From Okamejei kenojei (taxonomy: Eukaryota): a stretch of DNA of 64,000 bases. Made by a program: the position numbers and the translations under genes. Below the pieces are notes generated by a model. The model had not been told where the DNA came from, ran no database searches, and worked only from the letters and a program-made list of their open reading frames with translations. The stretch is from positions 992,001 through 1,056,000 of the forward strand of contig CM069154.1 in assembly GCA_035221665.1 (NCBI GenBank), read 5' to 3'. This document shows positions 28,186 to 34,180 of this stretch, piece after piece (positions within the stretch are counted from its first letter, which is position 1; the number at the start of each line of letters is the position of its first letter).

Positions 28186-30165
28186 TCCAGAAAACAAGAT
28201 GTTTCAAGTCACTGAGGAGGCAATAATGTTGAGAGACCAATGGTGGAAATCAAGACATATGGATTGAACAGATAATAGGGAGGGCAGCTGACAAGAGGGC
28301 TTGTCCTCTAACCAGTTATTGTCGGGAGACAAGTGGGAAGAGAGAAATGAGGAGAAAAACAGTACTGGTGTGACAGAACCCAACAGTTGCTGAAAACGTG
28401 AAGTGAAGGATAACACTGGAATGCAGCAGGTCAGGCAGCAAGCACCTGCGGAGAGATAACCTGTTATCATTAGCGCCATGTGTAGGAAGGAACTGCAGAT
28501 GCTGGTTGAAACCAAAGATAGACACAAAAAGCTGGAGTAACTCAGCAGGACAAGCAGCATCTCTGGAGAGAAGGAATGGGTGACGTAGAAACATAGAAAA
28601 TAGGTGCAGGAGTAGGCATTTGGCCCTTCGAGCCTGCACCACCATTCAATATGATTATGGCTGATCATCCAACTCAGTATCCTGTACCTCTCCAGAAAGG
28701 ATCTCTCCATTCCCCCGGTTCTCTTTAGCCACAAGGGCCACATCTAACTCCCTCTTAAATATAGCCAATGAACTGGCCTCAACTACCTTCTGTGGCAGAC
28801 AATCCCACAGATTCACAACTCTCTGTGTGAAAAATAATTTTCTCATCTTGGTCCTAAAAGACTTCCCCCTTATCCTTAAACTGTGACCCCTTGTTCTGGA
28901 CTTCCCCAACATTGGGAACAATCTTCCTGCATCTAGCCTGTCCAACCCCTTAAGAATTTTATAACTCTCTATAAGATCCCCCCTCGATCTTCTAAATTAG
29001 AAGATCGAGGGGGGATCTTCAATACTCGAGTACAAGCCGAGTCTATCCAGTCTTTCTTCATATGAAAGTCCTGCCATCACAGGAATCAGTCCGGTGAACC
29101 TTCTCTGTACTCCCTCTATGGCAAGAATGTCCTTCCTCAGATTAGGAGACCAAAATTGTACGCAATACTCCAGGTGTGGCCTCACCAAGACCCTGTACAA
29201 CTGCAGTAGAACCTCCCTGCTCTTATACTCAAATCCTTTTGCTATGAATGCTAACATACAATTCGCTTTCTTCACTGCCTGCTGCACTTGCATGCCTACT
29301 TTCAATGACTGGTGTACCATGACACCCAGGTCTTGTTGCATCTCCCCTTTTCCTAATCGGCCACCATTCAGATAATAGTCTACTTTCCTGTTTTTGCCAC
29401 CAAAGTGGATAACCTCACATTTATCCACATTACACTGCATCTGCCATGCATTTGCCCACTCACCAAACCTATCCAAGTCACCTTGCAGCCTCCTAGCATC
29501 CTCCTCACAGCTAACACAGCCCCCAGCTCCGTGTCATCCCCAAACTTGGAGATGTTGCATTCAATTCTCTCATCCAGATCATTAATATATATTGTAAATA
29601 GCTGGGGTCCCAGCACTGAGCCTTGCGGTACCCCACTAGTCACTGCCTGCCATTCTGAAAAGGATCCGTTTACTCCTACTCTTTGCTTCCTGTCTGCCAG
29701 CCAGTTCTCTATCCACATCAATACTGAACCCCCAATACCGTGTGCTTTAAGTTTGTATACTAATCTCTTATGTGGGACCTTGTCGAAAGCCTTCTGAAAG
29801 TCCAGATATAACACACCCACTGGTTCTCCCTTATCCACTCTACGTTACATCCTCAAAAAATTCTATAAGATTCGTCAGCGTTGATTTACCTTTCATAAAT
29901 CCATGCTGACGTTGCCCAATGATTTCACCACTTTCCAAATGTGCTGCTATTCCATCTTTAATAACTGACTCTAGCATTTTCCCCACTACCGATGTTAGAC
30001 TAACTGGTCTGTAATTCCCTGCTTTCTCTCTCCCTCCCATTTTAAAAACTGGGGTTACATTAGCTACCTTCCAATCATCAGGAACTACTCCAGAATCTAA
30101 AGAGTTTTGAAAAATTATCACTAACGCATCCAATATTTCTGGGGCTACCTCCTTAAGTATTCTGT

Positions 30166-30622
30166 CATACCTGCCAACTTGTGAGAATGAAAAATCGGAA
30201 TCCTATTAGTCTGACGTCAGTGAGGGCGGGGCACGTGACGTCACTAAGGGGCGGGGCATGTGACGTCAGTAAGGGGCGGGGTACGTGACGTCAGTCAGGG
30301 GCGGGGTACGTGACGTCAGTGAGGGCGGGAAAGTGACGTTAGTGCGGGGGGGGGGCAAGTGACGCCGAACGCCACCGTGGCGGGGCGGGGTCATGTGGCT
30401 GCGTGCTGACGTACACCCGTGCGTGCCCCCATAAGCGGCGCAGGCGCGGTGCGCTCTCTCGCTGTCTCCTCGCCGCCGCCGCCGCCATGGGTCGCATGCA
30501 CGCTTCCATCCCAATTCCGAATTCCAATTTTTTTCGGAATATTGAGGAAAAAAATCGGAATTCGGAATTGGGATGGAAAAATCGGAAGAATTCCGCCCAA
30601 ATCGGAATGGTTGGCAGGTATG
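30166..30622 (+). mobile_element. Non-autonomous TIR DNA transposon (13-bp TIR CATACCTGCCAAC, 6-bp TSD TTCTGT) inserted in the CR1
   Basis: TIRs 30166-30178 and 30610-30622; TSD 30160-30165 and 30623-30628; subterminal AAATCGGAA repeats at both ends. Superfamily tentatively hAT-related. Confidence 0.92.
30430..30504 (+). pseudogene. RPS13: RPS13-like 5' end (pyrimidine-rich start, Kozak context, MGRMHA)
   Basis: CTCTCTCGCTGTCTCCTCGCCGCCGCCGCCGCC ATG GGT CGC ATG CAC GCT (ATG at 30487). RPS13 begins MGRMHAPG in its short exon 1. Only 6 codons support the call. Confidence 0.7.
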
Positions 30623-30948
30623 TTCTGTGATGCAGCCTATCTGGCCCTGGCTATTTCCGGCAGATTATTTATGTCTTCCTTAGTGAAGACAGAACCAAAG
30701 TAGTTATTCCATTGGTCTGCCATGTCCTTGTTCCCCATGATCAATTCACCAGTTTCTGACTGCAAGGGACCTACATTTGTTTTAACTAACCTTTTTCTCT
30801 TCACAGATCTAGAAAAACCTTTACAGTCAGTTTTTATGTTCCCTGCTAGTTTTCTTTCATAATCTATTTCACCTTTCCTAATTAAGCCCTTTGTCCTCCT
30901 CTGCTGGACTCTGAATTTCTCCCAGTCCTCTGGTAGGCTGCTTTTTCT

Positions 30949-31737
30949 TGGCACTTGGAAAACTTTATTGTCATTCAGACCTTGTGGTCTGAACGAAATT
31001 TCGTTGCCTGCAGTCATACATATAATAAATAACAACACACAATAAACACATATTTAACATCCACCACAGTGAGTTCACCAGACACCTCCTCACTGTGGTG
31101 GAAGGCAAAAACCTTGTCTTTGTCTCTTCCCTTCTTCCTCTTCCTCTGCGCTGAGGCGATCCAGGCCTCCGATGTTGTGACCGCACCGGGTGATGTAAAT
31201 AAGTCCCACGGGTGAACCGTGGCCCGGGGCGGTCGAAGCTGCCGTCCCCCAGTCCAGCGGACGCAGCTGTTGCCGCGGGAGCTCCAGAAAAACAGGTCAT
31301 CAACCTGTGACCTGCGAGCTCCCGACGATGTCGTCCACTGGGCCCACGGCCGGGCCTCCAAAGTCGCTGCCGCCGCCACCGCCACCGGAAAGCCGCCACA
31401 GCTCCGAGTCGGGCCGCCGGGACGCCTGAAACCCGCTGCAGCCCCGCGCTGGTAAGTCCTGGCTCTACCTCCGGAGCCTCGGGTCGGTGGCAGTTAAAGT
31501 TGGAGGCCGCCATTTCCGCGATAAGACTCAGCGGAGATGGAGACGGGGGATACGACAAGAAAAGTCGCGTCCCCCGAAAAGGAAGATACTAAGATCATTT
31601 CTCCCACCCCTCCCACACACATACACTACATAATAACTCAAACTAACGCTAACAACAAGACAAGAAAACAACAAATAAAAAGAAAAACAGACGGACTGCA
31701 GGCTAGCCGCCGCTGCCAGGGCAGTGCCGCCACTTCC
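30949..31737 (-). mobile_element. Non-autonomous GC-rich retroelement inserted in the CR1
   Basis: Interrupts the CR1 sequence ctttttct/ggctaat (possible TTCT TSD); 3' hairpins, AATAAA and short tandem tail; related to copies at 42180 and 46410. Confidence 0.75.
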
Positions 31738-33469: not shown

Positions 33470-34180
33470 TCGCCGTCCCGCCCGCCCGCCCTCGCTGACC
33501 GACTGCACTGAGCGCGCTCCCGCTCCCGCGCCCGCCACAAAGCCCGCGAGCGCCGCTCACACAACCCCCGACCCTCACCCCTCCTCTCTCCCATCCCACC
33601 CCCACCTGCCGATTGGTCGGATCCGCTGGCCGCTCTGCCTGCCCTGCCGGCGGTTGCGACTACACTCGCCGCGGGGGTGATGGGAGGGTGCAGGTGTCGG
33701 GGGAGGGGAGTGTTGACGTCACCATGGGCGCGCGGGTCACGTGTGTGGGGGGAGGGGAGGAGGCGGCGGCGGCGGCGGCCGGTGCAAGATGTCGCTGCAG
33801 CCGAGGAAAGGTAAGGGGAGGACAGCGGAGACCCACCGACCCACTCACCGGCCCCCGACCCACCGAGCCACCGACCGTCCCGCCGCCCGGGCCGGGGAGG
33901 ACGTGCTGCTCCCTGCAGCGGCCGATCGTGGCTGGCAGCTGTGTGCGGCTGTCACTGAGCCCGCGGCCCGGAATGCCGGCTGCCGACAGCTGCTGGAGCC
34001 GGTGTAGGGGATGCTGTCAGCCGGCATGGTGGCGTCCCGTCCTCCGCAGGGCAAGCTGGCGCCAACCCCCCGCCCCCCAGGGCAGGCTGGCGGGTTCCCC
34101 CGGGGAGCTGTGTGTCAACCACACCATTACCTCGGTCCCTTCCCCTACACCTCCCGGTTTAATCTCAGCTCACGCCGCTA
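33470..34180. promoter_or_regulatory. CpG island / bidirectional promoter shared by YOD1 (-) and PFKFB2 (+)
   Basis: Very GC- and CpG-rich. Inverted CCAAT at 33612, palindromic CRE TGACGTCA at 33714-33721, GACTACA (ZNF143-like) at 33658. Candidate minus-strand donors near 33499 and 33578. The head-to-head YOD1/PFKFB2 arrangement is also seen in mammals. Confidence 0.8.
33789..33810 (+). CDS. PFKFB2: PFKFB2 predicted first coding exon (MSLQPRK, phase 1)
   Basis: aagATG in the CpG island followed by strong donor AAAG|gtaagg; phase 1 is compatible with the exons at 44009 and 45203. Confidence 0.65.

Follow-up and report, generated by a model that had tools for sequence, protein, structure and literature searches.

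Host promoters amplified to high copy number by transposable elements are known in vertebrates from the Helitrons of bats. HelibatN3 of vespertilionid bats is present in about a thousand copies and has been shown to give chimeric transcripts, and bat Helitrons amplified the promoters of 15 genes to 4690 copies, according to the sections of these reports drawn on here (PMC4224331, PMC4778049). Animal Pack-TIRs, which carry host DNA between terminal inverted repeats (TIRs), are described as nearly always single-copy. In the relevant passages of the animal survey, 4 of 370 cases are multicopy, those given as examples having 3-4 copies; gaps had a median of 4.6% of the element, and a unique best match was required (PMC8277862). 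hAT elements with 6-bp target-site duplications (TSDs) are named hAT6 in the part of the source used here (PMC12730594).

Here we describe a 457-bp element at 30166-30622 of a 64,000-nucleotide stretch of Okamejei kenojei DNA (the window). The original prediction was that a TIR DNA transposon had captured the promoter and exon 1 of RPS13. We consider it probable that the element is one of hundreds of non-autonomous hAT copies with a captured RPS13 promoter, likely spread by way of a full-length hAT.

Results

Structure of the element

The insertion is bounded by perfect 13-bp TIRs (30166-30178 and 30610-30622) and flanked by the TSD TTCTGT, read in the sequence at 30160-30165 on the left and 30623-30628 on the right. 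These features of a clean insertion all lay where they had been predicted. A match to a long transposase-coding copy (L133, below) identified the left TIR (plus strand) as the parental 3' terminus, when the hAT is read in the direction of its transposase. The first 38 bp (30166-30203, plus strand) are kept from the autonomous hAT, and their final CC is a 2-bp microhomology with the region upstream of RPS13. Alignment to the RPS13 locus placed the captured fragment at 30202-30504 on the plus strand, comprising an upstream array, core promoter, 5' UTR and codons 1-6. The tandem array (30212-30364, plus strand) has six units of 23-25 bp, containing what we take to be five CRE palindromes, five GC boxes and one E-box. 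Within the core promoter and 5' UTR (30365-30486, plus strand) are motifs of putative promoter function: a GC box at 30383, CATAAG at 30430 and GCGCAGGCGC at 30438. They are followed by a pyrimidine tract (~30454-30471) with a predicted TCT start near 30454, by (GCC)n, and by the ATG at 30487, from which 18 coding bases (30487-30504, plus strand) encode MGRMHA, codons 1-6 of RPS13. The claimed promoter-like motifs, pyrimidine tract, (GCC)n and MGRMHA start were thus all located. The claimed CpG-island-like interior was also found, with a CpG observed/expected ratio of 1.11 within the element versus 0.31 and 0.07 in the flanks.

Native RPS13 exon 1 extends 5 bases beyond the captured codons, up to its donor. 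In the element the splice donor has been replaced by a foldback inverted duplication of the subterminal region (30504-30578), with 32-bp arms, an 11-bp spacer, a hairpin z of -6.5 and 1-bp microhomology at its junction. The last 95 bp (30528-30622, minus strand) derive from the 5' terminus of the autonomous element and comprise subterminal repeats and the right TIR. Where this TIR meets the TSD, its end plus one TSD base make a predicted donor-like motif, CAG/GTATGT (30615-30623, plus strand), resembling the splice-donor consensus. The frame is open from the RPS13 ATG to this motif, in phase 2, and this copy has T at +6. The six-unit array and the foldback hairpin go beyond the original prediction, as do the high copy number and the CR1-like LINE ORF2 host described below.

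Source of the RPS13 cargo

A profile search (PF08069) of the 2.76-Gb genome found one intron-containing RPS13 locus, on contig C18, and one processed pseudogene, on C22. Bases 71-342 of the element matched the C18 promoter and exon 1 with 248/273 identities (E 1e-104). The match reached out to element base 37, giving 91% identity overall across the 303-bp interior. The 142-bp non-array core differed from the locus by 3 substitutions and one GCC unit (96% identity), and the native locus also has an array, of five units versus six in the element. On this alignment the interior 30202-30504 is confirmed to have been copied from the promoter and first exon of the host's RPS13 gene, the result that the original prediction had expected from such a comparison. 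It had also named two outcomes that would count against capture. Of these, a chance match of the 18 coding bases is ruled out by homology over ~300 bp, and standard transposon sequence in the interior is ruled out by the autonomous element, which shares the ends only.

No TIR, end sequence or autonomous-element match was present within 29.7 kb around RPS13. A cis donor element was not found near the gene, the nearest one seen (L130) being 3.3 Mb away. The processed pseudogene (L031; G000:C22:11741870-11742049), in which the start codon is altered, was ruled out as cargo source, having only 31 matching bases and no promoter.

Autonomous parent and classification

Five long transposase-coding elements (L133, L143-L146) were found among 43 left ends of an old type. 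L133 is 4463 bp (4.46 kb) long and has its own 6-bp TSD, AGAAGG. The hAT dimerisation domain PF05699 is recognised towards the C terminus of its product (24.1 bits versus a cut-off of 21.4, E 3e-5), and CxxH and RW motifs are visible in the transposase. The element in the window shares just its terminal 38 and 95 bp with L133. One intron and an inserted low-complexity repeat were also noted in the transposase. Every transposase frame inspected was interrupted and no intact driver was seen among them, to which assembly errors may contribute. Four of the five coding copies (L143-L146) lie within 2.6 Mb (G000:C30:5.78-8.33 Mb), a clustering that suggests local hopping.

As in a multicopy Pack-TIR, the TIR ends of one element, here the 38 and 95 bp matching the ends of L133, flank a non-TE host interior of 303 bp (expected range 100-5000 bp) that is 91% identical to its source (at least 90% expected). 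The RPS13 source is free of the same TE over 29.7 kb, and copies occupy different loci with distinct TSDs (95/112, below). The PF05699 match assigns the transposase to the hAT superfamily. The usual hAT TSD is 8 bp, and the 6-bp TSD found here points to the hAT6 group, whose transposases belong to the lineage containing Blackjack, rather than a canonical hAT, a placement based on the hAT transposase and TSD length, including that of L133. A Pack-MULE (long TIRs, 9-10-bp TSD, Mutator transposase) is ruled out by the 13-bp TIR, 6-bp TSD and hAT transposase. A Helitron (TC...CTRR ends, without TIR or TSD) is ruled out by the TIRs and TSDs, its likeness being functional only. Assignment of the family as a high-copy, multi-gene, promoter-carrying multicopy Pack-TIR of hAT6 type in a vertebrate is well supported by these sequence features.

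Copy number, insertion sites and age

A DNA search of the genome gave 1089 candidates, 40 of which were scored and were all near full length (97-100%). Searches with exact 22-24-base end patterns, whose controls had no matches, set lower bounds of 319 (the type of the window copy), 362 and 43 for three classes of left end and of 539 for right ends. A 20-base core-promoter pattern, likewise a lower bound, gave 446 matches, the native RPS13 gene among them. The RPS13 array was present at the left end in 30/30 and 30/30 loci sampled, mostly from contigs C1-C2, from the two large classes. By extrapolation, ~700 elements would carry RPS13 DNA.

Exact 6-bp TSDs flanked 95 of the 112 unique full elements parsed and were distinct among loci; among the parsed best matches, 27 of 29 had one. 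Carriage to new loci, as originally proposed, is thus borne out by hundreds of copies with distinct TSDs. Judged from these copies, the capture itself did not occur at 30166-30622, and the copy there is one of a family of hundreds. No insertion bias near CpG islands was seen at 70 element sites relative to 85 control windows (13/70 versus 14/85, p 0.83), in a weak test with controls from C1-C4 only.

Divergence from the column majority was 0.7-1.1% for type A, to which the window copy belongs, 0.2-0.3% for C and D and 1.3-3.6% for F. The insertion had been called young or unmethylated, and divergence of about 1% upholds the first of these. Contigs labelled as two other organisms bridged the exon 1-to-foldback junction with 1-3 differences, one of them also spanning the right TIR and SINE junction. 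Because these contigs bridge the junction, the family likely predates the split from both organisms. Contigs over one copy (L005), compared for presence/absence polymorphism, included empty-site joins in X1 and X6, but its flanks are repetitive and the X6 contig differs at 21 of ~590 bases; the joins may come from paralogs.

Subfamilies and additional cargo

Subfamily order was read from a stepwise table of diagnostic bases and would run from autonomous and F ends to B1, B2, A, A2/A3 and then C/D. B1 copies still have ends like those of the autonomous element, a complete exon 1 followed by its donor, and the alleles of RPS13 (L127 at 3/3 scorable sites); B2 differs from B1 by few bases. The B type makes up 15 of the 43 old-type left ends, with promoter, 23 coding bases and splice donor present. 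In A, the foldback of the subterminal region takes the place of the donor, and one copy (L117) combines the foldback with the old left end. A2 has an extra folded insert, presumably SINE-like, within a short duplication. Thirty sampled members of the 362 class comprised 10 A2, 3 A3, 8 C, 8 D and 1 other. Array unit number varies widely among copies, and the B-type L116 (1039 bp) apparently owes its length to an expanded CRE/GC-box array. Three further members (L101 at G000:C1:30.30 Mb, L129 and L137) have a different AT-rich insert resembling a LINE end.

Collecting the TIR elements and comparing their cargo, as had been suggested, revealed a family of hundreds with DNA from RPS13 and three further loci. 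Lineage F made a separate capture of gene X (GC box, CCAAT, an apparently non-coding first exon and donor). Its source is a CpG-rich promoter on C10 (L167; G000:C10:6545352-6545803), around which no TIR or autonomous-element match was found within 23.2 kb. LIM-homeobox (LHX3/4-like) exons lie 27-43 kb downstream of this source, across a 500-N gap, and their link to gene X is putative.

The D elements are 3.87 kb long, with TSDs in L096 and L098. Their left part is of A2 type and their right part of F type, and between them lie 2.6 kb from a CACNG-like gene. The CACNG-like piece, a name we presume from its PF00822 match (E 5e-12), contains 5' UTR, exon 1 and intron. Its source is L195 on C22, with no TIR or autonomous-element match within 4.5 kb around it. 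In the D copies (L096 at G000:C1:52513232-52517098, L098 and L187-L216) exon 1 and its donor are intact. The exon runs in the opposite direction to the RPS13 array, and the promoter that precedes it in the source gene is absent. The D search scored 40 of 111 candidates; 29/30 fetched were element copies, at 0.19% from the column majority. C is a deletion form of D, and both are without the RPS13 core promoter while keeping the array. A3 holds a fourth fragment, with 26 long matches, from a TIR-free source on C6 (L290; G000:C6:114112064-114112497). L290 contains CpGs and ETS-like and donor-like motifs and adjoins an AT-rich tandem repeat. Three of the four cargos are clearly gene 5' ends, and the fourth has, on its sequence, CpGs and a donor-like motif.

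Host locus

The element interrupts a CR1-like LINE ORF2 (29000-31053, minus strand), with RVT_1 matches at 29383-29844 and 29843-30202 and the frame resuming at 30637-31053. CR1-like paralogs show the empty site (8 matches, some being the same locus twice). A GC-rich segment within the LINE (31100-31600) is probably another inserted repeat.

On the minus strand, coding exons of YOD1 occupy ~25.8-26.0 kb and 24.35-25.07 kb; on the plus strand, PFKFB has its first ATG at 33789. The element had been placed in YOD1 intron 1, antisense to YOD1 and facing PFKFB2. Orientation and approximate distance (3.3 kb) hold; intron 1 is a putative assignment, based on a splice acceptor that immediately precedes the ATG of YOD1, and the paralog name PFKFB2 is presumed from synteny. 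Ahead of the first PFKFB exon, a CpG-rich region (33600-33815) contains separate CCAAT, CRE and E-box motifs and is a probable shared YOD1/PFKFB promoter.

Promoter output and CpG decay

Transcript evidence came from assembled contigs of 4 of the 23 listed runs, and such contigs cannot show starts, strand or level. In a run with spliced RPS13, one contig spans the element-specific exon 1-to-foldback junction, and contigs of the same RNA-containing run extend over sequence that precedes the predicted start, namely the array and left end. An X6 contig starting in the pyrimidine tract was rejected as evidence of a start site; the assembly graph branches at a variant in GCC number roughly one word length further on. 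Another, joining A2-type upstream sequence to spliced RPS13, is likely a graph chimera formed via the shared exon 1. A further X6 contig, at L005:1787-1824, shares the pyrimidine-GCC-ATG stretch and continues into a presumably profilin-like frame, probably a chance 5' UTR resemblance. The open phase-2 frame up to the TIR-end motif was present in 35/51 A copies, as one inherited state and not as independent evidence.

The CpG transition excess was 2.0x among 49 A copies (p 0.03) and 1.5x (not significant) among 24 not picked by best match. D gave 2.3-2.8x, versus 3.3-5.9x in CR1 controls. Youth and assembly noise can suffice to explain the lower excess relative to CR1. A few copies may switch on neighbouring DNA.

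Discussion

The 5' end of RPS13 was likely captured once, by template-switch gap repair. We infer such repair because ~97% of the parent is replaced and the breakpoints lie near its ends, the pattern expected of excision-triggered repair in the relevant part of the survey (PMC8277862). An already shortened element is an equally possible recipient. The mini-elements would then likely have been mobilised in trans, with transposase supplied by a full-length hAT of this genome. The foldback would have replaced the donor in A, and C/D would have arisen by recombination with an F-type end. We favour end changes (extra subterminal repeats and one end substitution) over the promoter as the likely main cause of the burst, because the B type remained rare despite a complete promoter. 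Separate foldbacks are present in A and in C/D, and subterminal motifs number 6 in the autonomous end, 7 in A and 10 in D. Array, end substitution and foldback co-occur in the large lineages, which makes their effects inseparable, and the motif gain in A is one only. Most copies, probably including that at 30166-30622, are likely passengers with little output, while a minority may act as mobile promoters.

It is possible, if doubtful, that the captured promoter or its CRE/GC-box array itself drove amplification, through open, poorly methylated chromatin accessible to transposase. The array is kept in all 60 of 60 sampled members of the two large classes, even in C and D, which have lost the core promoter, and CpG excess is lower in the elements than in CR1. 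Bat Helitrons with 5' cargo also attained higher copy numbers, as stated in the portion of that report used here (PMC4224331). Against this, B copies with both array and promoter number only about 15, F copies bear another promoter and are likewise few, and the CpG-poor intron of D has the same low CpG excess as its CpG island. The direction of transfer could also be reversed, with the array born in the transposon and gene-converted into the RPS13 promoter, as RPS13 homology begins merely ~10 bp upstream of the array. This is highly improbable: autonomous and F elements have no array, the 29.7 kb around RPS13 hold no TIR or end remnant, copies with the oldest ends share RPS13 alleles, as in L127, and the cargo terminates in conserved coding sequence.

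At the window copy, activity as a promoter, whether for a PFKFB2 transcript with an upstream start or for antisense RNA interfering with YOD1, is quite unlikely. Its core promoter is intact and aimed at PFKFB 3.3 kb away, the TIR-end motif with T at +6 could serve as donor, and the junction contig shows exon 1 bridged into the foldback in RNA-containing data from some family copy. But the native donor is absent, the TIR-end exon ends in phase 2 and PFKFB exon 1 in phase 1, the interval from the element to PFKFB exon 1 contains three poly(A)-like hexamers, and PFKFB has the CpG-rich upstream region described above. The copy is moreover nested in a LINE, and the coverage upstream of the predicted start resembles read-through or DNA carry-over. 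Any effect of this copy on YOD1 or PFKFB2 is, from its sequence, a guess. For the family as a whole, one can picture a natural promoter-trap cassette: a cut-and-paste transposon that repeatedly gained gene 5' ends and scattered ~450 RPS13 promoters and ~700 arrays, a share of which would start chimeric transcripts spliced via the RPS13 or TIR-end donor and so rewire expression in the lineage. We regard this as unlikely.

What is new here is a TIR transposon that captured a promoter at the scale of hundreds of copies. The literature searched held no description of an RPS13-carrying hAT family, and Repbase or Dfam may hold a consensus. Source genes, transposase-coding parent and intermediate stages all persist in one genome, which opens two questions to direct test: the way in which TIR elements acquire host sequence, and whether it is the promoter cargo or the structure of the ends that determines which derivative amplifies. 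Hundreds of near-identical housekeeping promoters in varied chromatin also constitute a natural position-effect experiment.

Comparison with known systems

Like HelibatN3, the family amplified a host-gene promoter with a few N-terminal codons and a splice donor, a design that B-type copies have in full. As in the promoter-carrying bat Helitrons, several genes were captured in sequence, with a bias to 5' ends. Unlike the rolling-circle HelibatN3, the hAT that serves as carrier here moves by cut-and-paste and has TIRs and TSDs, and its main subfamily has lost the native donor; chimeric transcripts have been shown for HelibatN3, and those of the family here are hypothetical.

Plant Pack-MULE and Pack-CACTA elements and E2F-site MITEs resemble the family in mosaic cargo from several loci, GC-rich 5' fragments and amplified regulatory motifs (in part, PMC13317346). 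They belong to other superfamilies and another kingdom, and a CpG-island insertion bias was not seen here (13/70 versus 14/85, in the weak test above). With hAT6 the family shares a hAT transposase and a 6-bp TSD, and the hAT6 passages mention no host-promoter cargo (PMC12730594).

The closest structural likeness is to animal Pack-TIRs such as Pack-hAT-N8_XT and Ssk-FB4, with TIR ends, ~300 bp of host cargo, a TE-free source, short microhomology, distinct TSDs in multicopy cases and mostly hAT carriers (PMC8277862). Unlike those examples, the family has ~100 times their copy number, with ~700 copies bearing RPS13 DNA by extrapolation; unlike in the surveyed elements, replacement extends to ~97% of its 4.46-kb parent, and its cargo combines DNA from four source loci. 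The unique-match rule of that survey may hide families like this RPS13-carrying hAT (PMC8277862).
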